From the NCBI GenBank assembly GCA_041671645.1, contig JBAZBD010000001.1, positions 799,234 to 863,233 on the forward strand: a stretch of 64,000 nt of DNA. Direction: 5' to 3'. Source of the stretch: Patescibacteria group bacterium (GTDB lineage: Bacteria > Patescibacteriota > UBA1384 > XYA2-FULL-43-10 > 1-14-0-10-43-13). Position 1 is the stretch's first letter. The number at the start of each line of letters is the position of its first letter. The notes beneath the pieces are model-generated. The model saw only the letters and a program-made list of their open reading frames with translations, made no database searches and was not told the DNA's origin. The translations under genes and the position numbers were made by a program. This document shows positions 1,721-64,000 of this stretch, one piece after another.

Positions 1721-1758
1721 CTCCTTCTAGATTTCAAAGTCATAATGGTGCTTATTAC

Positions 1759-1787: not shown

Positions 1788-1788
1788 A

Positions 1789-1816
1789 ATAAAAATCCCC
1801 GCCGGAGAGGCGAGGA
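1789..1816 (-). terminator. Rho-independent terminator, copy B of the 28-nt repeat
   Basis: ATAAAAATCCCCGCCGGAGAGGCGAGGA is identical to 15..42. It lies 7 nt past the stop of the lipoprotein gene. Same hairpin plus T-run on the minus strand. Confidence 0.75.
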
Positions 1817-1822
1817 TTAGAA

Positions 1823-6402: not shown

Positions 6403-6664
6403 CGTTTCTCTTCCTGGCCAAAATTTGTTTGAGTTGATCCTCGATGAGCAATAAATCATGCATTGACTCGAACACTGAGAAAGCAAGAGCGAAAACGGCG
6501 ATGGCCGATATCAGCAAACCAGCTATGACCAATATTTTCTTGAGCAGCGAGGCGTCAGGGAAATTAACCAACAGCGATATGACGAATATCAATATCAAGG
6601 CGGCGATAATAATGCCTATAATCAAGACGAGGTAAGAGCCAAATTTTATTAGAAATCTTTTCAT
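6395..6664 (-). CDS. Small two-TM membrane protein (89 aa)
   Basis: Two hydrophobic helices and a charged C-terminal tail. It overlaps the ABC gene start by 8 nt and starts 2 nt after the upstream stop, so it is translationally coupled. Confidence 0.6.
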   Translation of the reverse strand: MKRFLIKFGSYLVLIIGIIIAALILIFVISLLVNFPDASLLKKILVIAGLLISAIAVFALAFSVFESMHDLLLIEDQLKQILARKRNDD

Positions 6665-7389: not shown

Positions 7390-8320
7390 TTATTTATCGC
7401 GATCGATCTCTATCTTCCTTGAAACAGTTTGGAGCTTCTCCTGGGCATCCATATGCGTAGCGTCAGAAGGTTTGTATCCAGCTTTGGCAACCAGGAGTTT
7501 GTATTTGCCCTTTGGCAGGACGGTTGAGAATTTGCCCTTTTCGTTTGTGACTGCTGTTCGAATTAATCTTTTGCCTTCGCCGTCCATGATTCTGACTAAT
7601 GCCAATGAAACTCCCGAGTGATTGACGCTATCTAGGACATTGCCCCAAGGTGAGACTTTGACGAAAGACTTGATGTTGACGTACCAAAGCAGTGGGAAGA
7701 GCAGAGCTGAGACCAGGGTGACCGTGTCACGGTGACTGTGAGCCAAGCTATTCAGGATAGAGACGGTGCCAAAAATCAGGAAGCCGAGGGAAACGTAGAC
7801 CAATACTTTTTCGACAACCCCGATTTTCTCGATAAATGAAAATCTCTTGGCGATGCTCTTGTCGTTCATCGAAAGCAAAATATTTGGTACGATCAGTCCT
7901 TCTTGCTCGCTCTTAACCTCGATGATCTGACCCTTTTTGTAGAAACCTGGGGCTTCAGAAACTTCATATAGATCTTTGGTCACCTCAATCTCATATTTGC
8001 CTGGATCAGCGACAAAGCTGAAGTTGCCTTCGATATCAGAATATGTATTGGCTACCGGCCTCTTTGAGAACGAGCCAGGGAAAGTTTGAGTTAATTTGAA
8101 GAGCGTCAGTTTGGCTTGAGCGATTGGGATATAAGTGCCAACCTCAAGTACTCGGCCCCACTTGCGACGGCTTTTCTTGGTGCCGAGAGAGGCAAGGGCG
8201 AAGATCAAAGAGCGAATGTATTCAGGAAGTGAGAATAGAGTGGCGGCATTGGCCAGTGGAGCGGCGGCGGCAGAGATAATCGCTATGCCAGCGACAGCAG
8301 CGGTGCTGGCTGGAGTAGTT
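7390..8320 (-). other. C-terminal anchor region of the giant protein, where TM helices alternate with two CarboxypepD_reg-like beta-sandwiches
   Basis: An Ala-rich hydrophobic stretch (AAVAGIAIISAAAAPLANAATLF...LIFALASLG) and KKSRRKW are followed by a sandwich (SDIEGNFSFVADPGKYEIEV). Next come two TMs (VLVYVSLGFLIFGTVSIL, LVSALLFPLLWYV) and a second sandwich (VRIMDGEGKRL...NEKGKFSTVLPKGKYKLLVAKAGY). Confidence 0.55.
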
Positions 8321-23300: not shown

Positions 23301-26300
23301 CAGAATAAGTAACACGATCGACTGTCCAAGGCGACATCCCACTGGTGTTCGCATTTATCTTCCATTGGCCCGAGCCTGCAGTGCCGTTGAGCTTCATGAC
23401 AATGTTATTCCCAGCCGCGCCCTGTATTGTGAGCGCTCCAGAAATAGTCTGGGTTGAGTCTGCTGCAAAAGATAATGTCTTGCCAGCAGTGGCACAAGTA
23501 AAGCTAGAAGGAGCGTTGTCGCCAGAGATCACCGATTCTTGAGCAGTATCAAATGTCACGACATAAGGCGAGAAAGTGCCGCCAGCCGTCGTAGTCAGAT
23601 TGCGTCCGATTGTAATATCGCTACCTGAGAAATAAGCGCCTGAGCTGATAGCCGCATCGCGCCCAACAACAACTGCATAAGACGGCGATAAATAGCCGTT
23701 CGTCACAGAAAAGTCATTCGATACCGTAAAGCCAGCACTATAACCTACTGTCCCATCACCAGTGTTTGCGTAAATATAATTATAGATAGGCGGAACGTTT
23801 GTAAACGTATATGGATTGTAACTGCTATTAGCAGGAATTGAGCCAATTTTGAAAGTACCATTGGCGTTATTGAAAGTACCGCCAGAGATATTCCAAGTAT
23901 AATCACTATAATATCCGTTTGAGTCAGTTGTAATAGTCAATGTGCCCGAAGTAGATGTAAATGTACCACCGCTCATCGCAAATGATGCGTTTAGCATAGT
24001 AATCGTAGCAGTGTCACCATTAAATGTAGCACCGGTGCTAACCGTAATTTGATAATTTGATAAGGTCAAATTTGAAGTGTTAGCATTGAAAGTACCGCCA
24101 GAGAAAGTAGGAGTAGCCAAGATGTGAGTACCGCTACCAGCATTGAACTCGCCGCCAGCCTGATAAAATGAGCTGGAAAGAGTGAGGTTATTGGCTTCCA
24201 TCTCAACAATGCCATCGTTATACATACCATAGGCGTTTACATTGCCGCCAGGAGTAAACATCGTATACTGAGTGACATAAAGATCATACATAGTACTGAG
24301 AGTCGAACCAGAGACCGAGAAATCAGAGAAACAGCCGCAGTCATCAGCAATCGCTAAATCTGCGTTTGTAATAGCCCCTGCGGTATAGTCACTGTAAAGA
24401 GTGGTCTTGTATCGATACATATTGAGACCAGTTTTGTCTATGGCGGATTCAGGCAAATAGACGATACTGCCGGAATTGTAGCTCGGATCATTATCAATAA
24501 AGATGGTGACTGGTTTGCCAGCAACAAGCTCGACCCCGCTAAAGGAAAAAGTACCACCGGAGCCAGTGACGCCCGACATCTTTCCGCCACCGTTTGAGGT
24601 AATGGAAATCGGGATATCAGCGCCCAAAACGCTGCCGCCGATACCATCGTAAATTGTGCCGGAAATCGTATTGCCGCCAGAATATGTAACTGTTAATTTT
24701 GGATCGAGTGCCGTACCATCATTTTCTGCAAAGTAGCCATAGAAGTAGACACTATCATAATCGGCATTTATGGTTGGCTGACTATCTGCAGCATCAGCAG
24801 TGATTCTAAGACCAAGCTTCGTAACACCAGATGTACTAATAGCTGCTAGACCGCTTGCATTCATCGCGAAATCGTTGTATCCCATATCGTTGTAACTGGC
24901 GTACGGAATCGCAGATGCAAATGCAGTTGTTCCGAAAGTGTCGTAATCCGATGCTTGAAGCGAAGTGTTGCTAGAAGGGTTCGAGGAATACAGACCCAAA
25001 CTCGAATTCCAACCCGAAGGGTCACCCATCTTGTATGCGCCATATACGGAAAAATTGGCAGCTGAGATAGTCGCGGTGTTTGGGATGCTAGAAGTATCAA
25101 AGAGAAACGCACTTCTTGAGACGTAAGCCCAAGCAGCGTTGTTGCCAGCGGCGATTGCGGCCATATCACCGCTTGTTCCGTCATCAGCAGCGCTATATCC
25201 GCCAGACCTTATGGAAGCCCAGTCCCAATTGCTCCTACTGCTGTAAGTGTACCCATCAACAGACGTGACTTCAGTATGAGTATTTGGATAATAAATAACA
25301 TCAGTATCAATCTTCATGTCAGACTTTGGCGCTGTCTCTTGCCAGACAAAGCTTGAATCCAAGCTGCCTTCGATCTTTTTGGCTTCGACTGCGACAACCT
25401 TGTCTTGGCCAGTCTCATCTTTGACGACTTCACCAGTTGAGGCATTTACATCAAAAGCTTCTGGCTTGTCTCTGAATTTGAGATCGTCTTTGACGACGAC
25501 AGTCTTGTTTTCTTTGGTCTCTGGGTCGGTGACGACAACACTTCCTTCTTTCCCGCCATCAGTCTTGGTCACATTCCACTGGAAATTCTTCGGCGCGTCT
25601 TCGCCCTTGATTGTCTTCCAGAGACGTACACCATACTCAGAGATGTCAAATTCAAATTTGAGGTTACCGTCATCGGTTGTGACCTGGCTATCCTCAGCCA
25701 AAATCTGTGGTGCAATCCATTTGGAAAGCGCGTTTCTGGTATCTTCGGCCATCTTCTGGTCAGGAGTGTTGATATCGGCCCAAGCCACTTTGCTGTCAGT
25801 TCCCTTTGATTTTGATAAAACTGGATTGCCATCGACGTCTTTCAGGGTCACCGTATATTTGTCGCCAGTTTGTCGAGACTCGATTTCATAGCCAATCTTG
25901 TCTTTGAAAACTTTGACAGTAGAGGGCATCTGGTCAAAAAGCACATATTCGGGCGTATCGATGGAATGATTTGGGTTGATATCCTTCCAGCTTGAGTCAG
26001 CCTTGGCATAATCTTCTTTGTAGTGGACAAGGCCGGTATAGGACTCTAGAGTCTTGGTGCCGTTCTTGTTGTCGATTGTCTTGGTAGTCTCTGTGCGATC
26101 AGCGACAATCTCATTTGGATTGGCCAAAATCTGGTCAGTGCCGTTGTTTGAAATAGTAGTATTCTTCTGGCCCTCTTCTTTGGCGATGACAAATGAATAT
26201 TCCTGGCTCCATGGCGACCAAGCGCCAACAGAGTCCTGATAGCGAACGCGAGAGTAGTAGGTTCCTTCGGTGAGTAGAGTTGTTAGCTTGATATTTGTCA

Positions 26301-27273
26301 GTTCGTCTTTGGGCTCTGTCTTTGTCTGATCGAAGATCGGAGAAGCATAATCGCCAGATTTGGTCGAAATCTGCCACTCTGAAGCGTTTTGCGTGTCATT
26401 GTCGATATCAAGATAAGAGCTAGCGCTTAGGGTCTGAGTATTTCTAAACAAGCTTTTGTCAGCAGTGAACGAGAGACCGGTTGGTGTATTTGGAAGTCTA
26501 GAGTAGAGCAAGGTCAAAGAGTGCAAAACAGGCGAAAGACTAGCGTCGCCAGTCGAAAGGGTCAAGCGTATGTAGAGAGTCTCGGAATCGGCCATCTCAA
26601 GGACATCGCTCGAAAACAAAATGTTGTCAGTAGAAAATTCCTTTTTGACAGCACCGCCGTTGAGTACTTCGCTGGCCTCGATCGAAAGCCAATCGACAAA
26701 CTCACCCTTGGCCGGGGTGTAGGCCAAAATCGCGTTGCCAGATTCCTGGTACTGATTTTGTGTAATATCTGAGTCTAACTTCGCACTTTGGGAAAGAGAG
26801 AGAGAATTGGGGTTATCGGCTGTCGAAAGTCCAGAAATAGTCCAACTCTGCCAAGCTTCCTGTGTGCCCCAAGCCACTTGTGAAGAGGCGAAAGTGCGAA
26901 TGACGCTGGTAGCAAAAACGGAGGTGAAGATAAGGGCCACGATGCCAGACATGTAGCCGGAGAGTGAAACCCAGTGAATTGCAGAAGCAAACGGGCTCAT
27001 GTGCCACTTGTAGTACCATCTGAATTTCATCCGAAGATTGTTGTGGAGGGTGGCGAAGACTGGAAAAGTAACCTTGGTCGAACGCTGGATCAAAATGATT
27101 TCACGTTCAAGCTGAGCTTCCTTCTTTTGGAGCTCTTTTTGCTTCTCCGCGACAATCACCTCTTCTTTGGTGAGACCTTCAATCGCTGCCTTGTCCTGAG
27201 GCAACAAAGTGTACTTCTCCAAAGGTGCTTTTTTGGAAAAATGACTGCGGAAAAATTTGCGTAGGCCCTTCAA
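7390..27273 (-). CDS. Giant membrane-anchored surface protein (6,627 aa), putative adhesin or attachment fibre
   Basis: Uninterrupted 19,884-nt ORF with AGGAGG 4 nt upstream of a TTG start. N-terminal K/E-rich segment plus a TM (IHWVSLSGYMSGIVALIFTSVFA). Modules recognised by pattern: FN3 arrays, 7 YVTN repeats, a DUF285/BspA LRR block, InlB-B-repeat-like modules, two G/T/N-rich beta-helix-like blocks, and C-terminal TMs with CarboxypepD_reg-like sandwiches. Confidence 0.9.
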   Translation of the reverse strand: MKGLRKFFRSHFSKKAPLEKYTLLPQDKAAIEGLTKEEVIVAEKQKELQKKEAQLEREIILIQRSTKVTFPVFATLHNNLRMKFRWYYKWHMSPFASAIHWVSLSGYMSGIVALIFTSVFATSVIRTFASSQVAWGTQEAWQSWTISGLSTADNPNSLSLSQSAKLDSDITQNQYQESGNAILAYTPAKGEFVDWLSIEASEVLNGGAVKKEFSTDNILFSSDVLEMADSETLYIRLTLSTGDASLSPVLHSLTLLYSRLPNTPTGLSFTADKSLFRNTQTLSASSYLDIDNDTQNASEWQISTKSGDYASPIFDQTKTEPKDELTNIKLTTLLTEGTYYSRVRYQDSVGAWSPWSQEYSFVIAKEEGQKNTTISNNGTDQILANPNEIVADRTETTKTIDNKNGTKTLESYTGLVHYKEDYAKADSSWKDINPNHSIDTPEYVLFDQMPSTVKVFKDKIGYEIESRQTGDKYTVTLKDVDGNPVLSKSKGTDSKVAWADINTPDQKMAEDTRNALSKWIAPQILAEDSQVTTDDGNLKFEFDISEYGVRLWKTIKGEDAPKNFQWNVTKTDGGKEGSVVVTDPETKENKTVVVKDDLKFRDKPEAFDVNASTGEVVKDETGQDKVVAVEAKKIEGSLDSSFVWQETAPKSDMKIDTDVIYYPNTHTEVTSVDGYTYSSRSNWDWASIRSGGYSAADDGTSGDMAAIAAGNNAAWAYVSRSAFLFDTSSIPNTATISAANFSVYGAYKMGDPSGWNSSLGLYSSNPSSNTSLQASDYDTFGTTAFASAIPYASYNDMGYNDFAMNASGLAAISTSGVTKLGLRITADAADSQPTINADYDSVYFYGYFAENDGTALDPKLTVTYSGGNTISGTIYDGIGGSVLGADIPISITSNGGGKMSGVTGSGGTFSFSGVELVAGKPVTIFIDNDPSYNSGSIVYLPESAIDKTGLNMYRYKTTLYSDYTAGAITNADLAIADDCGCFSDFSVSGSTLSTMYDLYVTQYTMFTPGGNVNAYGMYNDGIVEMEANNLTLSSSFYQAGGEFNAGSGTHILATPTFSGGTFNANTSNLTLSNYQITVSTGATFNGDTATITMLNASFAMSGGTFTSTSGTLTITTDSNGYYSDYTWNISGGTFNNANGTFKIGSIPANSSYNPYTFTNVPPIYNYIYANTGDGTVGYSAGFTVSNDFSVTNGYLSPSYAVVVGRDAAISSGAYFSGSDITIGRNLTTTAGGTFSPYVVTFDTAQESVISGDNAPSSFTCATAGKTLSFAADSTQTISGALTIQGAAGNNIVMKLNGTAGSGQWKINANTSGMSPWTVDRVTYSDSNNLNSRPIAPTNSTASGSNNTNWLGSHISGTAYQGIGQGNVGSGQNVSASVNGGAKQTMATDGNGAFDFVAGGVTAGTVITIFFEDGNYSAGNIVTVAAGSSDITGLSLYSYLVSLTYEDSGPMTNTILATADNCSDANGKILFSVDGSNVLSTSYSLHIPASKVYTPGASVGSSGAYIYGTINATATFTSSDMGSFYVESGAVFNAGTGTVTVGGLYLNGGTFNSNSSTLVLNGYSTTIISGTFNSNTATVTIKSYNFYLYGGTFNAPAQVLTLDANDVATDFLFDMSGGGTFVNNDGAVWINNINSANTYYVKCGSNQFYQLSANSANGTVVTQDTLLVEHSLNITLANTFNAYGYNVETKHFAQDTGTFSAPNGTMKVSGDFIRDGGTFSNNYGTVELNSASLAQVVGGSTEFYNFTMTTSTARTISFNPGTNQTVTGQWTATGIADNLLTLQRNGTGAQWEITPSTSMDNQWTVDYVSVSNSKNNAANPISPTNWTKGVNVTNWDVLPGCVWDGGGTGNNWSTAENWTLDTVPDAACDVVFDSTSTKASTLDSGFTAHIKSLSINTGYTDTVTLGADLNDDGALNLAEGTLSAGNYTINIGGSWNNTGGTFTKGTSTVNFNGTAAATVASNSNDFYNITVAGQAGTISTPYAWIANSGATTTTKIDTSSNAVTTHTIGAAEFGVAVDNSGFIWQTNRSNGTLTKINASTNSVDASITIGSDPYGVAIDSNGFVWVASGTNNVAYKINPTTNAIAATVNVGARAYGIAADSSGFVWVANFNSNTVSKINATTDTVVATITVGTQPAGVAVDLNGFVWVPNYGTSDVSKINPTTNTVVATVSAGTNAFGVAADANGFVWVSNLGTNTVTKINTATNAVAATVTVGSAPCGVAVDASGFVWVTNSSANSVSKINGSTNVVAATINTGLAPYSLGDFTGYAYKKIVLSQGGTGSITLSDALVASNNLTVSSGTFTSGANAVTVGSFIQTDGTFAAPSTTMSVANDFTHTAGTFTHNSGTVVFNGGDSSIQDISGDTTFSAVTIQPGATTTKTLKFEASKTQTIAGALTVSGASGRVISLNSSSDGSTWSIDPQSTRAISYASVKDSINANATAIYTDNSGSNVTSAGNNVNWFASAPPNAASTVAITSIDSTLFTVTWTDNSSDETGFKVFTAAGNADCSAASYSGTPDYTTAADATSQAITGKTINTQYCAKVIATNADGDSDPAFAAPKYTLANTPDAPTVTAYDWSAASGNNMAAVINVNSNPAGTEFALSCNATPDSWLQGDGTCGASKVWKTKVNWETGTVNYLKNLTSNTLYSVKALARNGDTTETSASSAGTATSAPAQPASLTHTANTASQISWDWADVAGASSYRLLKSSDDSDVGSPSASAYDQGSLSANTQYTNYVRAYNGVLGQASSTASAYSSIEAASGITFGTIATDSIQVSATGTFTNLSVGSSGLYITKSAGTGTGFASWNTNNNTLTNTGLSPNTQYSYTAQARNGDGETTAATDSISKYTLAAAPDAPTLAASSASVINIKLTDNSSTTYAIAVSADGGSTWNYVKHADGTNQASEDWQNYAAWGGASGFDNVSLSPNVQYTYKVKARNGDNTETAFSSTAAKYTLANVPSAPTVDATSSSSLTVKINQNSNPAGTNYAVYNDTLSKYVQADGSSDTSAVWQDYTTWGGASGVTNTGLTANTEYTYKVKAKNGDNVETALSSGTAQTTVDVAPTEPNTVAIGTLTTTGFTVTWTDASSNETGFKVYTAAGNADCSAASYSGTPDYTTAAGAISQAITSKSINTQYCAKVIATNAIGDSAPAYAAPKYTLAAAPDAPTLAASSASVINIKLTDNSSTTYAIAVSADGGSTWNYVKHADGTNQASEDWQNYAAWGGASGFDNVSLSPNVQYTYKVKARNGDNTETAFSSTAAKYTLANVPGTPTFGTVTSTTIPVLIAQNSNPSNTTYAIKVVYGATTKYVQANSTLGDSAVWQAYATWGSSKTVTGLTANTLYTFSVAATNGDSVATAYSATADQSTLAVYTLTYNSGANGSVIGSSPQTVDHGSSGSEVVATPAANYHFVKWSDNDSTNPVRTDTNVTANITTTASFAIDTHTLAYSAGANGSIVGTTPQTIDHGASGSEVTATPAANYHFVSWSDDVMTAARTDSNVAGDIAVTASFAIDTHTLTYSAGANGSIVGTTPQTVDHGSSGSEVTATPAANYHFVSWSDDVMTAARTDLNVADNISVTATFAINTYTLTYNAGSNGSVVGTSPQTVDYGANGSQVTATPAAGYYFVDWSDANTTAARTDTNVTVDITVTANFALQFLSRWDTSKTSSGSSTATQIHLPLESTGTYNFIVDWGDSSTSTITTWNQAETTHTYASGGIYDLKIGGTITGFRFNNAGDKLKLSQISQFGPLRLGNSDGYFSGTKNLKITATDVLNTTGTTTMKNSFRDSGIDTVPSMNSWDMSAVTDMYCMFESSSLFNQDISSWNTGAVTSMYAMFYNAFVFNQNIGSWNTTNVINMAYMFESAWAFNQNISSWNTGSVTTMREMFWNNSAFNQNISNWNTGAVTNMNQMFYSAAAFNQNLASWNVVNVTDMTNMFSSSALSNANYSNILIGWSAQAVKSNVTLGAATKKYTLGAAADGRAHLVSAHTWTITDGGPSAFVLTYSAGSGGSIVGITPQTVDYGANGSEVTATPAANYHFTSWSDGVLTAARTETNVITDKSVTASFAIDTHTLTYSAGANGSVVGSTPQTVNYGANGSQVTATPAANYHFVSWSDDVMTAARTDSNVAGDIAVTASFALDAPASATGVTITPTSSTTFNVTWTDNSSIETGYKVYTADGNADCSAASYSGTPDTTTSADAVSQAIASKSVNTQYCAKVVATNSGGDSAPAYAAPKYTLANVPTFTTVAGDYSDADLWHLDTTINASANPAGTNYYIQYSTNDGAGAGNFYDPNAMAWQTETTYLFKKDKDNVDLAANTQYWMKVKAKNGDNVETIYTSTSVADVTPPAAPTALNITNICTTKATTTWTAATGADSYTVSYGTDTAATNIGTLTTATTSKQITGLSNTTTYYWKASATSTANGTGPYAAPSSFETSNCGVESPDDFAGSAASTTQINWTWSDITSEETGYKVEDSAHTSLSGNLDAGSTSYNETPLSANTGYTRHVNVYNGGGSQDSNSDTVYTLAAVPGQPTVTTLSSSRIRITVDKNGNPNANTRYAIAVSADAGSTWNYVKNADGTTQVSEDWQLYADWGGDSGFANTGLTKNTNYIYKIKARNGDNVATDFGATNNTTTLDNFSVTISSDGSGSGSLDQVTQIVDAGADVTTTATAAASSDFVSWTGCDTVATNICYLTDVSADRSITAVFTIKTYTITINEAGTGTGDLDQVTQDVNYGANLTVVATADISSTFTGWSGDATGTGDASFTNITANKTITATFTIKTYTITINTTGTGMGDLDQATQTVNYGANLTVVATPAASSTFAGWSGDATGTGDASFTNITANKTITATFTIRSYTVTISKAGNGTGDLDQSTQVVTYGANLTVAATPAVSSDFTGWSGDAAGTGSAALTNITADKTITATFTLKTYTISSSAGSNGAISPLGDNLANYGTSPEYTITPSDGYYISNVVVDGSAISGTLPSSYTFTNVTATHSISVSFAANNTCVWDGQAADDNWSSADNWTANIIPSATCDVIFDATSTKDSTLDASFTSHIKSLSVNTGYSGTISANTTLNDDGDFTLNAGTFTANAQTLNIAGSLTMTADPTAVFNEGTSTINFNPTTTGKTITTNGQVLGNLIFNGVDAVIDPNVTLLNNNISLLANHTLTAGWTFQDNVSAQSLTANAGTLVDGGKSVNIAGDIIIANKVGVLASTGVWTQSSSGNIANPDMHNTFGSLVAAGSGITSTMTAGVSVGLGSGSAGAFTVGPGTLMGIGKAVIVYSRSNDSVTVNNLTADSRLGVLAIYPQIADMTQKAITLPSNFATTFSFQQDPTGILTATGNFNFGNSNVIVAKDRTTTPAGYVDMSTHNLTCKNLTIGSTSTNEYATIPGYLKLGSGTTNIAGSLSHGNASNIGNKLDLGSGTINVGGNWDTSNITVTPGTSTVDLTGTGTLQSKGYAAAPYDFYNLKLAHNGNTTNAISSVTTSNVLYTYAGGTLNGDNRYAFRMYKSDGDAVVNTGANFTASTFLVYRPSSDVTVAGQNFGQGSVAYSGVTNDVAITLSSDVTTTRDIYAYSITTGKRTTLNAVDNNLTARNLYLAYPVYGVGTANLGSGTHEFTNGIFRYTGSTDDTNVLNLESSSVSIGGNIDFTGMTVDPGTSTITLNGIGGQTVAGSNTFNNLSATASAARTISFASDTTQTVNGALSLNGTSAGNITLSRSGGTGTDQWKIDPKGSTSTSYLSVENSKNLSSAVIDPSNSINLGNTNKWFPPTGTISFSSARTNQIDQTLTLSSSTGTQMKVSNSPDFSGSEYETFSTSKSWTLAAPTVDGMKTVYLKVKDIDGDESPTASASIILDITAPSAPTNLTALSASASVSLSWVNPTDTDFANVAIFRSTEADFTPNIGTNKIAYTTLSSTATYIDSNVTSGVTYYYKVEAIDSVDNYSAASNQASGKPDSDKPTAPGKPTVSGKTNTIDNIEYYNQPAVTLTWPAATDTNSGILNYSIKICKTSGCANANDALSLSTLTSPSNSLTLDGASALADGTYYVRVAANDNLGNQFAWSEELTFILDTVLPSSLEKVEAFDISDRVNSDYRVMLRWKASTDTGSGLLGYTIVKNGNNIISESTSGVQVDASGYASYVDTVTPNTQFNYSVFSFDLAKNQTASMAAEFQTTTVVDCSGCVILPPDEPGEGTLEISDVKATPSELMSEKAQATITWKTTVPATTQVKYGASAPYPYTTEVDTGLNSFHTVVLSDLDFNKTYHFAVISKDKYGQTAESTDFTFATKDIFKEQSVLDTVISNLSGTAMKVRDIIGQMQIVGVNNSGQPVVFGIPTSTTTPASTAAVAGIAIISAAAAPLANAATLFSLPEYIRSLIFALASLGTKKSRRKWGRVLEVGTYIPIAQAKLTLFKLTQTFPGSFSKRPVANTYSDIEGNFSFVADPGKYEIEVTKDLYEVSEAPGFYKKGQIIEVKSEQEGLIVPNILLSMNDKSIAKRFSFIEKIGVVEKVLVYVSLGFLIFGTVSILNSLAHSHRDTVTLVSALLFPLLWYVNIKSFVKVSPWGNVLDSVNHSGVSLALVRIMDGEGKRLIRTAVTNEKGKFSTVLPKGKYKLLVAKAGYKPSDATHMDAQEKLQTVSRKIEIDRDK
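12320..13420 (-). repeat. In-frame tandem array of about 72-aa (216-bp) InlB-B-repeat-like modules
   Basis: Four 72-aa units (TIKTYTITIN...GWSGDATGTGDASFTNITANKTITATF) plus one longer variant. The units starting at 12757 and 12973 share about 90 nt with one mismatch at a 216-bp offset. Confidence 0.8.
15440..15925 (-). repeat. DUF285/BspA-type leucine-rich repeat block within the giant protein
   Basis: Six consecutive repeats of about 26 aa of the form FNQNISSWNTGxVTxMxxMFxxAxx. Confidence 0.75.
17488..17828 (-). repeat. Perfect 341-bp direct repeat, copy 1 (FN3 module)
   Basis: Base-for-base identical to 18412..18752 by manual comparison. The 924-bp offset equals 308 codons. Confidence 0.9.
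18412..18752 (-). repeat. Perfect 341-bp direct repeat, copy 2 (FN3 module)
   Basis: Identical to 17488..17828. Both encode KYTLAAAPDAPTLAASSASVINIKLTDNSSTTYAIAVSADGGSTWNYVKHADGTNQASEDWQNYAAWGGASGFDNVSLSPNVQYTYKVKARNGDNTETAFSSTAAKYTLANVP. Confidence 0.9.
20485..21336 (-). repeat. Seven YVTN-type beta-propeller repeats within the giant protein
   Basis: A repeat of about 42 aa, xVxKINxxTNxVxATIxVGxxPxGVAVDxxGFVWVxN, occurs seven times. Confidence 0.75.
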
Positions 27274-51803: not shown

Positions 51804-53609
51804 CTAATTGGTGAATTGGAAAGTAGAAGTGATTTTATCCTGAGTTGCCGATAGTTCGCCCGGACTGAAATGAATCCAATATACCTTGGAATTATGTTCT
51901 GCAGCTATTTGATAATATGCATCGCCGATTCCACCAGTTAAATATTTGTAGGCCTTTTCTCCATCTAATGTTGTGACGGCTATCTCTGAATTCGTAACAT
52001 CATTTCGGATAAAGCTATCTAAAGTCTTATCGTCGTTGTTAAATTTTGTAAATTCGGCAAGAGAGCTAACTGTCTGAACAATGATATTTGGTGAATAGGC
52101 TTCATTTTGCGTACCACTATTTTTTATAGCTTCATTCTTAGGAGAATTAAACGTGGCAGAGTCTGCTAAGACTCCTTTGGTCCAGTCAGCGGGGTATTTT
52201 ACAGAGTAGCCAAAAGCTGTGTCTGTATATGTCTTCCAAGTCAGAGTTTCGTCGTAAGTCAACGAATCGGCAATCAAACGAGCTGTCTCGATCTTTGCAT
52301 TTAGGTCAGAATAATCACCATTTTTAATCTTCTCCGCGATCTGTCTCGAGGATCCAACTCCGTCACATACATCTTCCTTGAGGGCAAGGCGCGCCGCCGC
52401 CGAGTCAGCAGTCATAGCCGCAGAAGATGAAGTGATACTTATTTCAATATTTGGAAATTCACTGTTAAGCGCAGTAACAACCTTCAGAGAACTACTCGGA
52501 GAACACTCACTGTTGAAATAATCGTAGACCAGCAGACTCTTATTGCTTAACTTTTTGACCATCAATACCTCCGGTATGGCTTGCGCACCGAACATGTTCG
52601 TTTGCAAATCTGCAACCGACCAAGAAGTATCTACCTTGACCTGGCTATAGGATGTATTAATTACAGGCAGTCCTTGAATATAAGCCTTTGCTTGGGCGCT
52701 TATGTCAAAAGATTTATCAGGGTCAAAATGAACAATTCCATTTTTGCCGTCAGAACTAGATATAAATTTGCCACCATATCCATCTTTTAGATTGTCGATC
52801 AGGTTAAGCTTCATGCTGGACCAATCTTGCGGATATTTAAGAGTGAATCCGACTTCTGTATTTGTATATGTCTTCCAGCCGAGGGTAGGATCAATCGCAA
52901 ATGTATTCAAAATATTCTTTTCCGTGGTGGTCAGATCGCTATCTACTTTTTTGTTCAATGAACTAATTTTATAAATATGACCGCTGCTTTCTAAAACAAT
53001 TACATATCCGCTGACATCTCCCGCTTGTGTCGCCGAATATGCGGTCTGACCAGCAAAAGTAATTTGTTTACTGTCGGAGAAACCAGATGTTTTCACATAA
53101 TCAGCAAGAGTCGCGGGCTTCGCTCCACCCAGACCGCCATAAGTGTCGCTAATACTAGCGTAGTAAGTCACCCCCATATTCGGGAAGACGGCTGCTCTTG
53201 AGGTAGGGTTTGCGACAGCATAATCATCGTTTGTTTTTTTGGTTTCTGGACTAGTTAGAGCGATAGAATTGGCGCCGAATACCGTTGCGGCATCAGCAAG
53301 CGTCCAATCAGTTGGGTATTTGATTGAATAACTAAACGCGGTGCTAGTGTATGTCTTCCAATCTGCAGTCGCGTCTACTGCTGTTGTCGTTGTGGTCGTG
53401 TCAGTCGTGGTAACCGTTGAAGCTGTGTCATCGCTTGATTTGGAGTTGATATAGCGATAGTAATAGGCGCCGGCAGCGACTACGAGAAGGAGGACGACGA
53501 GAGCCAATAATAGAATTACTTTGCTTCGTACTTTGGTCGATAGCACAAAACTTTTGTGCGATTCTGTCTTCTCCGTTTTTTGATCCATATTAATCTCTCC
53601 CTCTTTCAT
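51804..53609 (-). CDS. Membrane-anchored secreted protein with three copies of a WKTYT...KYPxDW module (601 aa)
   Basis: An N-terminal TM and a Thr-rich linker are followed by three occurrences of WKTYT[SND]T[AE][FV][SG][YF][ST][ILV]KYP[TQA]DW. Confidence 0.7.
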   Translation of the reverse strand: MKEGEINMDQKTEKTESHKSFVLSTKVRSKVILLLALVVLLLVVAAGAYYYRYINSKSSDDTASTVTTTDTTTTTTAVDATADWKTYTSTAFSYSIKYPTDWTLADAATVFGANSIALTSPETKKTNDDYAVANPTSRAAVFPNMGVTYYASISDTYGGLGGAKPATLADYVKTSGFSDSKQITFAGQTAYSATQAGDVSGYVIVLESSGHIYKISSLNKKVDSDLTTTEKNILNTFAIDPTLGWKTYTNTEVGFTLKYPQDWSSMKLNLIDNLKDGYGGKFISSSDGKNGIVHFDPDKSFDISAQAKAYIQGLPVINTSYSQVKVDTSWSVADLQTNMFGAQAIPEVLMVKKLSNKSLLVYDYFNSECSPSSSLKVVTALNSEFPNIEISITSSSAAMTADSAAARLALKEDVCDGVGSSRQIAEKIKNGDYSDLNAKIETARLIADSLTYDETLTWKTYTDTAFGYSVKYPADWTKGVLADSATFNSPKNEAIKNSGTQNEAYSPNIIVQTVSSLAEFTKFNNDDKTLDSFIRNDVTNSEIAVTTLDGEKAYKYLTGGIGDAYYQIAAEHNSKVYWIHFSPGELSATQDKITSTFQFTN

Positions 53610-53698: not shown

Positions 53699-54559
53699 TT
53701 ATAAGCTGTTTCCAAGTTTTGATCGCGATAATTTACCCGCCTTGTCGATTTCGAAGCAGATGTCCCCGTCCTGATCGGTGCGGGAGATTTGGATATTGTG
53801 CTGATTCAGCCCATCGAGCGTTTCCTGGTTGGGATGACCGAATTGATTGTTTAGCCCATCTGAAATGACAGCAAACTCTGGATTTGCTTTATCATAGACA
53901 GAGCTTAAATAAGCATTTTTGGAGCCGTGATGGGCGACTTTGACGACTGACTCCTTGGACAAATTCGGAAGCAGATCAGACTGTCTATCCGCTTCGATGT
54001 CACCAGTAAGGAGGAAACAATTTTCTTGGGCGCAAAAATCCAAGACGAGCGAAGAGTTGTTGAGATTGTCAATTTTCTGCTTCACATATTCTCCTCCCGG
54101 ATAGAGAAAGCGAATCTGGCCAGGTGGGACTTCAATTGTTGAATCAATTTGTGGCACCGACAGGGACAGATTTTTGTCCTTCAAACTGTTCAAAAACTTT
54201 AGATATTGATCTGACTCAGCCACCACTCCAGTGCCGTAAACCTGACCAACGGTGTAGCGAGCTAAGACTTCATTGATCCCGACAATGTGATCGGCGTGTG
54301 GATGAGGAAGTATGATGAGATCGATTTTTCTGTCTTCCAGAGCCATCATTTTCGGTAATTTTTCCAAGACTTTGGCATCTGGCCCGCCGTCAATTAGTAT
54401 TTGGAAATCGCCCTTGGATATCATGGCCGCGTCTCCTTGGCCAACGTCGAAATAACAAACTTTGGTCAAGTCTGTGGCTGGAGAATTGAAAATCAGAAAG
54501 ATAAAGGAAATCGGCAGGAGCAAAGATACCATGATTATTTTTTTGGCGTGTTTTCTCAT
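53699..54559 (-). CDS. Stand-alone metallo-beta-lactamase domain protein (ComEC C-terminal domain homologue) with its own TM
   Basis: YFDVGQGDA, HPHADHIVG and VAHHGSKN. The ATG at 54559 is 2 nt after the ComEC TGA stop. Confidence 0.8.
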   Translation of the reverse strand: MRKHAKKIIMVSLLLPISFIFLIFNSPATDLTKVCYFDVGQGDAAMISKGDFQILIDGGPDAKVLEKLPKMMALEDRKIDLIILPHPHADHIVGINEVLARYTVGQVYGTGVVAESDQYLKFLNSLKDKNLSLSVPQIDSTIEVPPGQIRFLYPGGEYVKQKIDNLNNSSLVLDFCAQENCFLLTGDIEADRQSDLLPNLSKESVVKVAHHGSKNAYLSSVYDKANPEFAVISDGLNNQFGHPNQETLDGLNQHNIQISRTDQDGDICFEIDKAGKLSRSKLGNSL

Positions 54560-54561
54560 GA

Positions 54562-56001
54562 TCAAAAAGTTAGCGAAGCTAGCGGAACACGAGCTAAATA
54601 ATGAATTGCCAAGATAACGTATTCGAGCATCGGCCAGAGCAGGAGGGCAATGGCTTGAGCGAAAGGCGCCCAGATGAAGCCCAAAATTATGGCGACAAAA
54701 GTGAATAGCATGATCCAGGCCACGCTCCAGACGACCAAGAGATTGGCAATCGGCGAGATCAATGAAATTGTTCGGAAATTGTAGAAAATGATCGGAATTA
54801 CGGCGAGCTGAGCCGCCAGAGTCTCACAGGTCATCTTGGCGAAGTCAGGTGTTTCGGAACGCTTCGAGATTTTTTGATACAAATCAGAGAGCAATGGAGC
54901 GAGATATATGATACCGATGAAAGCGGCGAATGAAAGTTGGAAGCCGAGATCATAGAATAATAGATACGGATTTTGCAGCAACATAACAAGCGCAGTCAGA
55001 GTCAAAATATTGAGCTGATCAGCCCTCCGGCCGTAAGTCGTGCCGAAAAGAATCAGCATCGAGAAGATTCCGGCTCGGACAACCGAAGCGGAGCATCCGG
55101 TCGCCAAGATGAAAATGATGACGAAGATTAGTCCGGCCCAAAACGATCTCTTCTTGCCCAGAAACCCAGCAAGGACCCAGGCTAGAGCGATCGTAATGAT
55201 AGTGACGTTAAATCCCGAAAGAGCCACGATGTGAGTCAGCCCCGTTTTCTGGAGATCATCCTTCAGCCCCTGGCTCATATTGGATTGGCTGCCAAGCAAG
55301 ATTCCACTAGCGAGCGAGGCGTGTGGCTCAGGCAGGGATCGGCTGATCAGACTGGCTGATTTCTCTATTGCCAAGAAGAGCGCACCCTTAACCGTCACCC
55401 AGATAGAGCTATCCTGCCCAACGATCGTAATCTGCTCGCTCTCTAAGATGCCATAAATCCCCTTCCCTTTGAGATATCCTGGATAATCAAAATCTTCAAT
55501 TTTCTCTGGTTTGACTATTTTCCCATTAATCTCTAATTTGTCGCCATATCGATAAATCGGAAAAACTGGAGCCTTCAGAAGCAAACGAGTTTTCTTGCCT
55601 GCCTCGGCGGCAGACGGGCCATTTATATCCGCCAGTACTGTCAATTTTTGATTGGTCGCCGTCACCGCCGGTCGCTCCGCCACGACGACATTAAAGCTCG
55701 CGCTTTGGTCAAAAATGAGGCTGGGCGTGCTTTTGTAGGAAAAATATGATAAATAGAAAAGTCCAAGGGAGAAAAATAAAAAGGCAAAGGAGATCAGGAC
55801 CAGCCCCCGTAATTTAAGAAGAAAATTGATGAAAGCGGTCAGAATGAGAGCGCAAAATAGAAAAATAAACAGACGGAAATCTGCTAAATAATTGAGAGTC
55901 AGGAAATTCGCAAAAGTTAGGCCAACCAAAAATGAGATCGCAAGAACTGTGAAAAGACGAAAGGGATAAAATAAATTCTCCCACCAATCTTTGAAAAGCA
56001 T
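54562..56001 (-). CDS. comEC: ComEC/Rec2 DNA-uptake channel (DUF4131 plus competence domain, lacking the MBL domain)
   Basis: Polytopic protein with an OB-like insert. Carries TGLTHIVALSGFNV and SASVVRAG motifs. Confidence 0.8.
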   Translation of the reverse strand: MLFKDWWENLFYPFRLFTVLAISFLVGLTFANFLTLNYLADFRLFIFLFCALILTAFINFLLKLRGLVLISFAFLFFSLGLFYLSYFSYKSTPSLIFDQSASFNVVVAERPAVTATNQKLTVLADINGPSAAEAGKKTRLLLKAPVFPIYRYGDKLEINGKIVKPEKIEDFDYPGYLKGKGIYGILESEQITIVGQDSSIWVTVKGALFLAIEKSASLISRSLPEPHASLASGILLGSQSNMSQGLKDDLQKTGLTHIVALSGFNVTIITIALAWVLAGFLGKKRSFWAGLIFVIIFILATGCSASVVRAGIFSMLILFGTTYGRRADQLNILTLTALVMLLQNPYLLFYDLGFQLSFAAFIGIIYLAPLLSDLYQKISKRSETPDFAKMTCETLAAQLAVIPIIFYNFRTISLISPIANLLVVWSVAWIMLFTFVAIILGFIWAPFAQAIALLLWPMLEYVILAIHYLARVPLASLTF

Positions 56002-60354: not shown

Positions 60355-60864
60355 GTGCAGCTTCCTAGTGTGGATGTTTTTATCGGGTTGTTATTCTTAG
60401 TCGGCATCGCCTACGGCTTTATTTTGCAACGAGAAAAAACGATCACGACACTGATTTCTGTCTACATCGGGCTGGTCGTTGCATCGAGCTTCTCCGGAAC
60501 AGTATTTGACTTCTTCAATGGCAACAAGGTGATTGCCAATCAGATTTGGATCAGAGGCAACGCTTCAAATCCGACAATAGCGATCGTAATATTCTTGATC
60601 ACTACTTTCCTCGTCTCGGGAGCAATCAACTCAAAATCAAAAAAAGGTGACGGCAGTATTTCTCTCCTCGAGACGATTGTCTACAGCGCTCTGATGATGG
60701 CCCTAATCCTCTCCTCCATCTTGGGATTCCTCCCCGAAGCGACCAGAACCCACTATATCGAAACTTCTATGTCCGCAAAATATCTTTGGAATATGCGGAC
60801 ATTATTTGTAGTTTTACCCCCGATCATGTTGGTCTTCCTGAATTGGAAAAGAAAAGAGAAATAG
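60355..60864 (+). CDS. Polytopic membrane protein, possibly CvpA-like
   Basis: GTG start after GAGGGG. Four TMs. The N-terminal pattern VDVFIGLLFLVGIAYGFILQ resembles CvpA, but the family call is weak. Confidence 0.5.
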   Translation: MQLPSVDVFIGLLFLVGIAYGFILQREKTITTLISVYIGLVVASSFSGTVFDFFNGNKVIANQIWIRGNASNPTIAIVIFLITTFLVSGAINSKSKKGDGSISLLETIVYSALMMALILSSILGFLPEATRTHYIETSMSAKYLWNMRTLFVVLPPIMLVFLNWKRKEK

Positions 60865-60987
60865 CAGAAAATTATTACTTATTAGTTCTTAATTTTTATT
60901 CAATTATTAATTAATAATTATAAATTGATTAGAAATTAAGCCGAAGGCTCCCCTTCGGGGGAAATCAATTATTAGAAATTGAGGAAT

Positions 60988-61350
60988 ATGCTTTTACTTC
61001 GTTGGATCTTAAATACTTTGGTTCTTTTGCTAGTTAGCTACCTTGTGCCTGGTGTAAAATTTTCAGGGTTTTGGGCCGCTTTGATCACTGCACTAGTCTT
61101 AGGTTTACTGAACGCTCTAGTAAGACCGCTGATCATCTTACTCACCTTGCCTGTCAATTTCCTGACCCTTGGTTTCTTCACTTTGGTCATCAACGCTCTC
61201 ATGTTCTGGCTCGCCAGCACCATCGTCAAAGGATTTGATATCGCAGGATTCTGGCCCGCTTTCATCGGCGCTTTGGTCTATTCGATCATCATCATGATCA
61301 TAAATATGATGACACTCAAACAACCGCCTAAGCAAACGATCAAAAAATAG
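60988..61350 (+). CDS. Holin-4_2/DUF360 (YvlD-like) family membrane protein
   Basis: WILNTLVLLLVSYLVPGV.F.GFW.ALI.ALVLGLLNALVRPLI..LTLPV..LTLG.F is typical of the family. The ATG at 60988 follows a GAGGAA RBS. Confidence 0.7.
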   Translation: MLLLRWILNTLVLLLVSYLVPGVKFSGFWAALITALVLGLLNALVRPLIILLTLPVNFLTLGFFTLVINALMFWLASTIVKGFDIAGFWPAFIGALVYSIIIMIINMMTLKQPPKQTIKK

Positions 61351-61434: not shown

Positions 61435-61509
61435 GGGCTGTTAGCTCAATGGTAGAGCAGTGGCCTTTTAAGCCATTGGTTCTGGGTTCGAGTCCCAGGC
61501 GGCCCACCA
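61435..61509 (+). tRNA. tRNA-Lys (anticodon TTT), CCA encoded
   Basis: GGGCTGT-TA-GCTCAATGGTAGAGC-A-GTGGC-CTTTTAA-GCCAT...CTGGGTTCGAGTCCCAG-GCGGCCC-A-CCA. Confidence 0.9.
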
Positions 61510-61649: not shown

Positions 61650-62240
61650 ATGACCACATTATCAGTAGCACAAGTTGCAGAAACAGGTGCCCTTGAAGCT
61701 GGCGTAATTTATAATTATGCGACCAGCGCCGCTATCAAAGCGGCTCGACTACGACTTGCTAACATGCGCGATCAGTTGGCAGGAATTATCGCTGAAACAG
61801 ATTTGTCCGATACCGCACATGGTGATGTTGACGCAGGTGTCGTGAATGATGCGATACAGTGCGGCGCCCTTTTGACAGCGATCGACAATCTTGACTTTGA
61901 GATTAGCAATCCGAATCTCATAATAGTCGACTGGATGGACCACGGGCCAGAACCCAAGGTTGTCCCCGGGACGGAAATCACCGCCCTTTTGGATGGAGAA
62001 GAAAAGTCCTGGATATTCCTGGATTCGCTGGACTTGACGTACGGAGAGCATTCGCCAGAGATTACCAGCCGATTAATTACAATTAGTAGCACCATCGGCG
62101 AAGCGATCTTCGGCAGTTCAGCCGAAGATGAGATTACCATTCTGAAGCCCATCAGAGGGCAAAGGAACAGAAAGGTGAAAATCCTTTCAATCGAACCGTG
62201 GCCACCCCGAGCCACAAAAAAACGCAGTAACAAAGATTAA
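61650..62240 (+). CDS. Protein with a GreA/GreB C-terminal (FKBP-like) domain and a non-canonical N-terminus (Rnk-like), 196 aa
   Basis: The C-terminal VVPGTEITALLDGEEKSWIFLD...ITISSTIGEAIFGSSAEDEITI...KVKILSIE follows the GreA C-domain pattern. The N-terminal half is not a recognisable Gre coiled coil. Confidence 0.55.
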   Translation: MTTLSVAQVAETGALEAGVIYNYATSAAIKAARLRLANMRDQLAGIIAETDLSDTAHGDVDAGVVNDAIQCGALLTAIDNLDFEISNPNLIIVDWMDHGPEPKVVPGTEITALLDGEEKSWIFLDSLDLTYGEHSPEITSRLITISSTIGEAIFGSSAEDEITILKPIRGQRNRKVKILSIEPWPPRATKKRSNKD

Positions 62241-62270: not shown

Positions 62271-62304
62271 GGCACCGTCCCCAAGACGGTGCCTCGCTTT
62301 TTTT
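62271..62304 (+). terminator. Rho-independent terminator
   Basis: GGCACCGTC-CCCAA-GACGGTGCC followed by TCGCTTTTTTT. Confidence 0.8.
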
Positions 62305-62385: not shown

Positions 62386-62415
62386 TTAAACGCCTCACAT
62401 ATGTGAGGCGTTTAA
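62386..62415. terminator. 30-bp perfect palindrome (family member 3), probable terminator of the cohesin-like gene
   Basis: TTAAACGCCTCACATATGTGAGGCGTTTAA, 36 nt beyond the stop at 62451. It shares the core CCTCACATATGTGAGG with 3687..3714. Confidence 0.55.
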
Positions 62416-62450: not shown

Positions 62451-63812
62451 TTAGTTGAAATGGTTAATATCGTTGTTATTGTCCACGACAGGATTCTCTG
62501 TTTCTGGAGTCGGAGTCGAAATTGGAGGTGCAGTTGAGGTAAAGGTGGAAATTGGGGTAGCTGTGATTGTAGCAGGGGTGGATCCTTGAGCGCGGCCTGT
62601 CATTTTCAGATCTATTTTTCTGTTTCGATAGAGAAAGAATCCCAGCAATAGCAATCCGAGTAAAAGAGCGACGCTGCTCCAAAACCAAGGGTTCTGAAGT
62701 AATCCGGAAGACCAATCATTCTGAATCACGATTGGAGTTGCATAGGCTTTCTCTGGATCGACCTGAAAGGTAAGTTCGTCTGCCGCTTTGGTCGTCTCTG
62801 TCGCTGTAGTAGAGAGTGCATATGCTTTATGGACGCCCGCTTCTATGCCGTCGCTGACTGTGATACTCCATTTGCCCTCTGCATCGGTTGTGACAGATTT
62901 TGTGATCAGTGTGCTAAAGACATAGACTGTCACAAGAGAGTTCGGCTTGGATATACCCTTAAAGGTTAGATTGGTTAGAGATTTTTTGTCTTGAATGTTG
63001 GCGACAACTGCTTGGTCAGAATTTAATAATATTGTGGTTTCTGAACTAGCGCTAATCTTTTTGATTTCTTTTTGAAATTTCTTCTCGCTATCTGGCATTG
63101 TCGGCGCGACTAGTACGGGCGCCTCTGCTGTAGCTGGAACTGGCGTCTCTGTCATGACGGCTGGTGTCTCTGCTGTCGCGGCGGGTGTCGTAGCAGCAGG
63201 GGTAGCAGTTGTGGCAGAGCTTGGAGTGGTGGTCTTTTTGGTTGTGCTTGGAGTTGTGGGTGTAGTATCGGCTGGGTTGGTAGCTGGGACATCTGGTGTT
63301 GTCGGAGTATCTGGTATCGGGTCTGGGATGACTGGTGCTGCCGCTATGGTGTAGCTACCTCCTGAGACAGAAGACAAAATATTGGCTGGTTCATCGCCTG
63401 AGCTGACGACTTGGCCACCCGACAAGGAAATTGTGGCTGTGCCGGCATTCGTGCCTTTGACTACCAAAGTGTAAACGGTAATGGTACCAACACCATCACC
63501 AGTCGAACCACAGCTGAAACTTAGCGATGGGGTGCTTGGGTCGGTAGTACACATAGAAACGGAGCCTTTGGTCAGGCTCACCACGGTCAAGTTGCTGACT
63601 GATACGCTTGCCTTGTAAACCGACATATTTTGGCCGCCGCCATCTGCAACGATACCAACTGAAAATTCCTCGCCGACAGTATGGCTACCTGTTGCTGAGC
63701 TCACCGAAATTGTGGCTGTGTTTGCTGCCCGTATAGGGGTAATTGCTCCAAAGATAGCAACTATCGCTGAGATAGTGACAATAGCACTAGTTTTTTGTAT
63801 TACGTTGAACAT
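62451..63812 (-). CDS. Secreted, C-terminally membrane-anchored protein with an N-terminal cohesin-like domain
   Basis: A signal peptide is followed by ISVSSATGSHTVGEEFSVGIVADGGGQNMSVYKASVSV...TATISLSGGQVV...ILSSVSGGSYTI (cohesin-like pattern). Next come a P/T-rich linker, an Ig-like domain, a TM (SSVALLLGLLLLGFFLY) and a T/P-rich tail. The ATG at 63812 follows GGGAG. Confidence 0.65.
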   Translation of the reverse strand: MFNVIQKTSAIVTISAIVAIFGAITPIRAANTATISVSSATGSHTVGEEFSVGIVADGGGQNMSVYKASVSVSNLTVVSLTKGSVSMCTTDPSTPSLSFSCGSTGDGVGTITVYTLVVKGTNAGTATISLSGGQVVSSGDEPANILSSVSGGSYTIAAAPVIPDPIPDTPTTPDVPATNPADTTPTTPSTTKKTTTPSSATTATPAATTPAATAETPAVMTETPVPATAEAPVLVAPTMPDSEKKFQKEIKKISASSETTILLNSDQAVVANIQDKKSLTNLTFKGISKPNSLVTVYVFSTLITKSVTTDAEGKWSITVSDGIEAGVHKAYALSTTATETTKAADELTFQVDPEKAYATPIVIQNDWSSGLLQNPWFWSSVALLLGLLLLGFFLYRNRKIDLKMTGRAQGSTPATITATPISTFTSTAPPISTPTPETENPVVDNNNDINHFN

Positions 63813-63826
63813 ATCCACTCCCTAAA

Positions 63827-64000
63827 TTATTTATTCCAGTTTGTAAGTAAGGTCGCAAAGTCTAGTTCATCCACAACCCTATCTCTATTGTAGTCAGCCA
63901 TTACATTCTTTGGTGCACCCCAGTTTCCAAGCATACTAGCAAAGTCAAGCTCATCGATGGCGCCATCATTATTTATATCGCCACTTTTGTGGATGATGAG
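63827..64000 (-). CDS. 3' end of a CDS (truncated by the window edge) ending in a dockerin-like tandem EF-hand repeat
   Basis: Manual translation gives ...LIIHKSGDINNDGAIDELDFASMLGNWGAPKNVMADYNRDRVVDELDFATLLTNWNK*, i.e. two Dx[ND]xDGxIDxxD-type segments. This ORF is not in the supplied track because it has no start inside the window. Confidence 0.6.
   Translation of the reverse strand, partial: LIIHKSGDINNDGAIDELDFASMLGNWGAPKNVMADYNRDRVVDELDFATLLTNWNK

Follow-up and report, generated by a model that had tools for sequence, protein, structure and literature searches.

A dockerin gene beside a transmembrane-anchored cohesin-like gene in Patescibacteria: a probable non-cellulosomal surface-display pair

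At one end of a 64-kb window of the chromosome of a Patescibacteria (candidate phyla radiation, CPR) bacterium, the window being the whole stretch of DNA that was analysed, two genes lie in tandem on the minus strand between positions 62451 and 64000. The upstream gene, which is cut by the window edge, ends in a dockerin, and the downstream gene, hereafter the anchor gene, codes for a 453-amino-acid (aa) protein with a predicted cohesin domain at its N-terminus and a transmembrane helix near its C-terminus. Neither a second dockerin nor a second cohesin-like domain occurs in the window; the two lie 14 nt from each other on the same strand, and we discuss here whether they form a pair that displays proteins on the cell surface. 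An initial annotation had described adjacent cohesin-like and dockerin-like genes in this region, and the features it described are all present where it placed them, all on the minus strand. The features of the locus, with the evidence for each, are the following.

63830-64000, minus strand: 3′ end of the dockerin gene, its last 57 codons, cut by the window edge (translation; Pfam Dockerin_1 above cut-off)
63929-63979, minus strand: dockerin repeat 1, DINNDGAIDELDFASML, an EF-hand-like calcium loop and then a helix (direct reading; alignment with 10 related dockerins)
63845-63895, minus strand: dockerin repeat 2, DYNRDRVVDELDFATLL, loop and helix as in repeat 1 (direct reading; alignment with 10 related dockerins)
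63813-63826, minus strand: intergenic spacer of 14 nt, containing AGGGAG at 63818-63823, 5 nt ahead of the ATG (sequence)
62451-63812, minus strand: anchor gene, 453 aa plus stop codon (product identical to GenBank MFA6963933.1)
63723-63812, minus strand: predicted signal peptide or hydrophobic segment, aa 1-30, ending ...TPIRA/AN (Kyte-Doolittle windows >1.6 at aa 4-30)
63333-63722, minus strand: predicted cohesin domain, aa 31-160, of a divergent subfamily with a conserved GGGQ loop (model, family profile)
63078-63332, minus strand: proline/threonine (P/T)-rich linker, aa 161-245 (composition; disordered in the AlphaFold2 model)
62757-63065, minus strand: immunoglobulin (Ig)-like domain, with a Big_13 match at aa 280-352, the predicted beta strands beginning near aa 250 (Pfam Big_13)
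62625-62690, minus strand: predicted transmembrane helix, aa 375-396, PWFWSSVALLLGLLLLGFFLYR, followed by RNRK (hydropathy; helix 375-396 in the model)
62454-62624, minus strand: T/P/N-rich tail of ~56 aa (sequence and composition; cytoplasmic location predicted from the positive-inside rule)

The anchor gene begins with an ATG at 63812 and ends with a stop codon at 62451-62453. A mechanical list of open reading frames (ORFs) gives it 455 aa, starting from a GTG two codons upstream of that ATG, and we regard the ATG as the likelier start because the AGGGAG in the spacer is a ribosome-binding site 5 nt ahead of it. The dockerin gene ends with a TAA at 63827-63829; its frame is open to the window edge and translates as LIIHKSGDINNDGAIDELDFASMLGNWGAPKNVMADYNRDRVVDELDFATLLTNWNK followed by the stop, and the two remaining frames contain many stops. 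A terminator scan found none between the dockerin gene and the anchor gene, and since the spacer lacks a terminator the two genes fit a bicistronic arrangement. The database entry for the anchor protein, which lies on an 867,751-bp Patescibacteria contig, bears the public name 'Ig-like domain-containing protein [Patescibacteria group bacterium]', and an identical protein is encoded on an independent assembly, a 2.4-kb Logan contig (SRR18595301, our locus L001) that starts inside the dockerin. Scanning genome contigs with the anchor protein found no relative, an indexed homology search with the 57-aa dockerin tail found nothing, and a metagenome scan returned the contig of one related locus (L002, described below) again and nothing further.

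The initial annotation had placed two dockerin-type segments at the end of the truncated upstream gene, and both appear in its translation. The 57-aa tail matches positions 2-52 of the 57 in the Pfam Dockerin_1 profile (PF00404) with 29.5 bits, above the gathering cut-off of 22.9 (E 8.6e-7); it also matches NCBIfam dockerin_GC at 25 bits, under the cut-off of 29 for that family, and gives weaker EF-hand matches, as expected for a dockerin. The tail consists of duplicated ~22-residue segments with EF-hand-like loops. The 12-residue loops, DINNDGAIDELD and DYNRDRVVDELD, have D, N, D, D and D at positions 1, 3, 5, 9 and 12 in both repeats, and the helices are nearly identical (DELDFAxxL, with FAxxLxNW after each loop); the two-repeat pattern of calcium loop and helix is conserved in the 10 related dockerins of the alignment. 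The near-symmetric repeats would allow a dual binding mode. The canonical Ser-Thr (or Ser-Ser) recognition pair that dockerins of the Clostridium thermocellum type have at loop positions 10/11 is not present, Glu-Leu standing there in both repeats, and the related dockerins have N/D-D, L-N, I-Y and similar pairs; because these positions differ, the specificity determinants differ from those of classical type I dockerins. The dockerin sits at the C-terminus of its protein, and the corresponding proteins of relatives have N-terminal hydrophobic segments and passengers ranging from 533 aa (L002) to 2455 aa (L009).

The N-terminal domain of the anchor protein is harder to recognize. A phmmer search of the PDB sequences with the single domain gave chance-level matches only, with no cohesin among them, and a word-indexed homology search with the domain found nothing. 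An exhaustive homology search, by comparison, identified 264 homologues at E≤1e-3 (33 of them at E≤1e-10), most of which share the layout of a signal, a GGGQ-loop domain, a P/T linker, an Ig-like domain and a transmembrane helix. Among the best 120 of the 264, there are seven with a Pfam Cohesin match and 18 with a Dockerin_1 match (E≤0.01 in each case). A family profile of the domain built from 44 sequences (A2) matches, over the whole domain length, the Ruminococcus flavefaciens ScaB cohesins 5m2o_A (E 8.8e-5) and 5aoz_A (E 1.3e-4) in the PDB, and an indexed search with the 44-sequence profile returned eight proteins. In the related proteins P0152, P0154, P0156 and P0158, which this profile retrieves, Pfam Cohesin scores 29.6-39.3 bits (cut-off 24.1) inside the region matched by the family profile (E 1e-15 to 1e-31).

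Structure prediction agrees with the profiles. AlphaFold2, run with the family alignment, gives an all-beta model of the domain with a predicted local distance difference test (pLDDT) score of 96.3 and a predicted template-modelling (pTM) score of 0.88, and in a Foldseek search of the PDB with this model cohesins fill ranks 1-35, the best being 5n5p_A (E 1e-7, TM-score 0.74); the fold is the beta-sandwich (jelly-roll) of cohesins. The initial annotation's reading of the N-terminus as a cohesin-like beta-sandwich was thus borne out by family profile, model and fold search, to which Pfam on the single sequence is blind, and it withstood the structure prediction and profile searches that could have overturned it. 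Because the family profile, the transitive Pfam matches and the fold search agree, we conclude that the domain is, as judged from sequence and model, a divergent cohesin overlooked by current hidden Markov model annotation. Relatives are named 'Ig-like domain-containing protein' or 'hypothetical protein' in public databases, with the cohesin module unannotated.

The rest of the anchor protein has the linker, Ig-like domain, transmembrane helix and tail that the initial annotation had given it; the tail, however, had been counted as part of the surface display, whereas the positive-inside rule puts it in the cytoplasm. The linker stretch (aa 160-245) is composed of 28% T, 22% P and 16% A. Pfam Big_13 matches the Ig-like domain at E 1.4e-5 and 25.9 bits, slightly below the 27-bit cut-off, and is matched in 14 of 120 homologues at E≤0.01, the best at 2.8e-10. 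An N-terminal hydrophobic segment is present in 130 of 150 homologues and a later transmembrane segment in 101 of the 150. AlphaFold2 run on the single sequence of the whole protein is uninformative (pLDDT 44), and only the stretch with the transmembrane helix has a block-mean pLDDT of 77-90. Because it has a signal peptide and a C-terminal helix that obeys the positive-inside rule, the protein is predicted to be a type I membrane protein with its cohesin facing outward and its tail in the cytoplasm.

Convergent with the anchor gene is a 196-aa ORF (61650-62240, plus strand) that matches no Pfam family and is kept beside the anchor gene on the L001 contig. It is followed by a terminator-like hairpin at 62271-62293, and the two convergent genes have a perfect palindrome, AAACGCCTCACATATGTGAGGCGTTT, between them at 62389-62414.

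Related loci were chosen through the cohesin domain alone, with no regard to which gene lay upstream. Four come from species-representative genomes (L002 from a Patescibacteria group bacterium, L003 and L004 from Berkelbacteria, and L005 from Saccharibacteria), and others from exact-protein look-ups (L007, L008, L009, L010, L011, L012 and L013); L006 is the same contig as L002, and the 11 independent loci are L002-L005, L007-L009 and L010-L013. In 11 of the 11, a two-repeat dockerin forms the end of the protein encoded by the next gene upstream on the same strand, with L008 seen for the last 16 residues only (LVDNDDFTIMLFWWT). No gap between dockerin gene and anchor gene is longer than about 50 nt, and the L013 genes adjoin without one. 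The cohesins of these loci share 35-54% identity with the window cohesin. Because the order of dockerin gene and then cohesin gene is strictly conserved in all 11 loci, we infer a functional link between the two genes.

The passengers to which the upstream dockerins are attached vary. Those of L002, L004, L007 and L012 have K319L-type PKD and Big_6 domains, L003 has a Vgb_lyase-type beta-propeller, L005 has a Rax2-type propeller together with GLUG repeats, and L009, the 2455-aa protein, has fn3, GLUG and Peptidase_M26_N-like domains. Pfam identified no glycoside hydrolase, esterase, lyase or carbohydrate-binding module (CBM) in six upstream dockerin proteins of relatives. Locus L013 (1-5638, plus strand) has three tiers: a 1413-aa GLUG protein with a terminal dockerin, a 312-aa adaptor that combines a family cohesin, a PKD domain and a C-terminal dockerin, and a 545-aa cohesin protein whose gene abuts that of the adaptor. 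Cohesin and dockerin also occur in one chain elsewhere in the family, in P0006 (two cohesins and one dockerin), P0151 and P0154. The L013 chain resembles a hierarchical scaffoldin system, and by analogy the chains with both modules look like adaptor-scaffoldin architectures.

The motifs of the paired modules also vary together. In the window, L009 and L011, the dockerin motif is DF[A/S]xxL[G/T/A] without an aromatic residue four positions on, and the partner cohesins carry MSVY, LSVA or VDVF together with a shorter loop replacing TDGY. At most other loci the dockerins have DFTxL[L/M][F/Y] and the cohesins have FT[S/T]F (FTGF in L010) and TDGY, and the anchor-proximal dockerin of L013 is intermediate between the two groups. 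This co-variation could reflect either a specificity code or merely clade structure.

Two further observations concern these loci. L003 has a possible second pair (430-2336, minus strand), in which a 190-aa protein with a weak dockerin-like end, GDVDNNGIIDEKD...DVDSDGTVTAADL, matches the dockerin profile built here at E 8.6e-4; its gene overlaps, stop with start, that of a transmembrane-anchored protein of 445 aa. To the eye, the N-terminus of this second protein resembles a cohesin, but the family profile does not match it. In L011, the cohesin anchor gene is followed directly by a gene of the IS605 OrfB/TnpB type (OrfB_IS605, Cas12f1-like_TNB; 5454-6659, plus strand).

We think it likely that the window locus is a two-gene cohesin-dockerin module for surface display in a CPR bacterium, and that it is non-cellulosomal. 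The upstream gene would give rise to a secreted protein with a C-terminal calcium-binding dockerin, and the downstream gene, probably co-transcribed with it, to a type I membrane protein. The single cohesin would be held off the membrane by the ~85-aa P/T-rich linker and the Ig-like spacer, and the C-terminal transmembrane helix would fix the protein in the membrane. After export, the calcium-loaded dockerin would plug non-covalently into the cohesin, tethering a large passenger to the envelope of this monoderm-type CPR cell; calcium-dependent binding of the dockerin by the window cohesin is predicted here from the conserved adjacency of the genes. The likely role would be adhesin-like protein display for attachment to host cells or surfaces, which we favor over polysaccharide breakdown because the passengers of relatives are variable and non-enzymatic in look.

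Several points weigh against this interpretation. Pfam Cohesin (PF00963) does not match the 453-aa protein even at E≤10, and the window's own passenger lies beyond the window edge. The N-terminal hydrophobic segments of several relatives' passengers are possible membrane anchors themselves, and because the passengers could be anchored in this way a second tether is less obviously needed. With Glu-Leu in place of the Ser-Thr pair, the known binding mode cannot be carried over at the level of single residues. Across the paired modules, pairwise dockerin identity correlates with pairwise cohesin identity (r 0.76, Mantel p 2e-4), which is a matter of consistency and no proof of co-evolution because shared descent of neighboring genes explains it equally well. 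Finally, dockerins without cognate cohesins are reportedly common in non-cellulosomal organisms, as Peer et al. are said to have found in 2009.

A different explanation, which we consider unlikely, is that the two genes code for envelope proteins that are co-expressed without binding to one another, the cohesin fold being a generic adhesin or Ig-type module and the dockerin binding another cohesin (of the genome or of a host) or a glycan, or acting only as a calcium-stabilized terminal module. The missing recognition pair leaves room for it, the binding of our two modules being itself a prediction, as does the Saccharibacteria species Southlakia epibionticum, in which the dockerin-domain protein SEML1_0315 is essential and no cohesin gene is listed alongside it (PMC10633639). 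However, adjacency to the cohesin gene tracks the dockerin and not the passenger: the upstream dockerin is there at every locus, while the remainder of the protein changes among PKD domains, propellers and GLUG repeats. Cohesin and dockerin share a chain in P0006, P0151, P0154 and the L013 adaptor, as they do in adaptor scaffoldins, and the top fold matches of the N-terminal domain are all dockerin-binding cohesins.

We see still less reason to regard the locus as a genuine minimal cellulosome, in which the upstream protein would be a cell-tethered carbohydrate-active enzyme (CAZyme) for polysaccharide degradation. The window gene's passenger is out of view, the dockerin and 'cellulosome anchoring' genes of candidate phylum SR1 were earlier read in such a way (Kantor et al.), and a minimal pair in Cellulosilyticum lentocellum does tether a GH5 cellulase (PMC13487519). 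But the six upstream dockerin proteins searched with Pfam are free of glycoside hydrolases, esterases, lyases and CBMs, the anchor has a single cohesin and no CBM, and there are no CAZyme genes among the neighbors scanned. By the usual features of a cellulosome, then, the system falls short, with one cohesin, no CBM in the anchor and no enzyme cargo in six related pairs. A chance resemblance or annotation artefact, with low-complexity D/N-rich sequence taken to be the dockerin and a generic beta-rich segment taken to be the cohesin, might be suspected from the failure of Pfam Cohesin on the window protein alone and the empty word-indexed search, but is effectively refuted by a dockerin that exceeds the Pfam gathering score and has two intact loops, 264 homologues, a high-confidence and cohesin-specific model, the identical protein on Logan SRR18595301 and conserved synteny.

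A broader proposal builds on the surface-display interpretation and is put forward tentatively, as somewhat less probable than not. Across the Patescibacteria/CPR lineage there may be a hierarchical, non-catalytic 'plug-and-display' system, in which interchangeable giant adhesin-like proteins (PKD, propeller, GLUG beta-helix) would be mounted on a membrane-anchored monovalent cohesin, sometimes through cohesin-dockerin adaptors, using a dockerin code of their own (DELDFA versus DNDDFT type). Such a system would mediate host attachment by these ultra-small episymbionts, and its cohesin subfamily would be invisible to Pfam.

It is not yet understood how CPR/Patescibacteria attach to host cells, and the majority of their envelope proteins lack annotation. 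A hidden cohesin subfamily on a transmembrane stalk, paired with dockerins on variable adhesin-like proteins, would provide a concrete mechanism by which surface proteins could be assembled and exchanged, and would widen the range of cohesin-dockerin assembly to include anchoring by a membrane helix, non-enzymatic cargo and a phylum whose genomes are minimal. The public label 'Ig-like domain-containing protein' misses the cohesin, and the 264-member family could seed a new profile. New orthogonal cohesin-dockerin pairs of this kind may also be of use in protein engineering.

The surroundings of the pair are those of an ordinary chromosome, with DnaK/DnaJ, a split ComEC and tRNAs. A giant 6627-aa ORF (7390-27273, minus strand) contains fn3, NHL, ten Flg_new_2 (InlB B-repeat-like) repeats, DUF285 and Flg_new repeats, and its product is probably a huge surface protein; we considered it as a cargo for the anchor and rejected it, as it has no dockerin of the kind studied here. 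ComEC appears to be split (53699-56001, minus strand) into two adjacent ORFs with a 4-nt overlap, coding for a 479-aa protein (Competence, DUF4131) and a 288-aa metallo-beta-lactamase protein. A 601-aa protein (51804-53609, minus strand) has two weak PsbP-like matches (PsbP_2, E 2.5e-8; PsbP, E 2.6e-6), which is unexpected in non-photosynthetic CPR, and judging by these matches it is probably a generic PsbP-fold envelope protein. Closer to the pair, a 123-aa membrane protein (60979-61350, plus strand) has a strong Phage_holin_4_2 match (E 2.6e-36); beside this holin-like gene are a weak CvpA-like protein (60355-60864) and a tRNA-Lys (61435-61509).

Non-cellulosomal cohesins and dockerins have long been known. 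They include the glycosidase/toxin complexes of Clostridium perfringens (PDB 2vo8, 2w1n and 2o4e) and the Archaeoglobus fulgidus cohesin (2xdh), and a 'planctosome' has been hypothesized in freshwater Planctomycetes (PMC6461901). The domain contexts differ from that in the window, the C. perfringens modules occurring with enzymes and those of Planctomycetes with LTD or peptidase proteins, and none of these systems is described as a conserved bicistronic pair of dockerin cargo and transmembrane-anchored cohesin in Patescibacteria. Among the papers found by full-text searches on cohesins or dockerins in CPR/Patescibacteria, none has a title or abstract that points to a conserved pair of this composition, and those read for the purpose describe no such pair. 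Cohesin or dockerin modules on envelope proteins of the same superphylum are mentioned in a 2013 paper (PMC3812714) and, for Southlakia SEML1_0315, by Wang et al. (2023; PMC10633639), both as passing annotation remarks without a structural test, gene-pair analysis or anchor architecture. We set SEML1_0315 aside as a candidate orthologous pair, no adjacent cohesin gene being listed for it.

The most direct precedent is the pair ClcD/ClcC (Clole_2598/2599) of C. lentocellum, the products of which form a heterodimer in vitro (PMC13487519). There too the dockerin gene lies directly upstream of the cohesin gene, with a spacing of about 40 bp compared with 14 nt in the window, and each gene has its own ribosome-binding site (PMC13487519). 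ClcD is a GH5 cellulase, however, and ClcC has CBM3 and X2 modules and no cell anchor, so that theirs is a cell-free system (PMC13487519), whereas the window cohesin protein is membrane-anchored, lacks a CBM and belongs to a different phylum.

Closest in design are the monovalent anchoring scaffoldins, OlpA and OlpC of Clostridium thermocellum (PDB 3ul4 and 4dh2) and ScaE of R. flavefaciens (2zf9), which have SLH or sortase anchors. In contrast, the window protein is anchored by a C-terminal transmembrane helix with a cytoplasmic tail and has no SLH domain by Pfam, and sequence identity to these scaffoldins is only 7-20%. Their cargo consists of enzymes or scaffoldins of a machine that degrades plant cell walls, whereas the window's relatives carry non-catalytic passengers. 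By analogy, the window system would work like a monovalent anchoring scaffoldin, with the cohesin and linker of that class present and an anchor type that places it outside.

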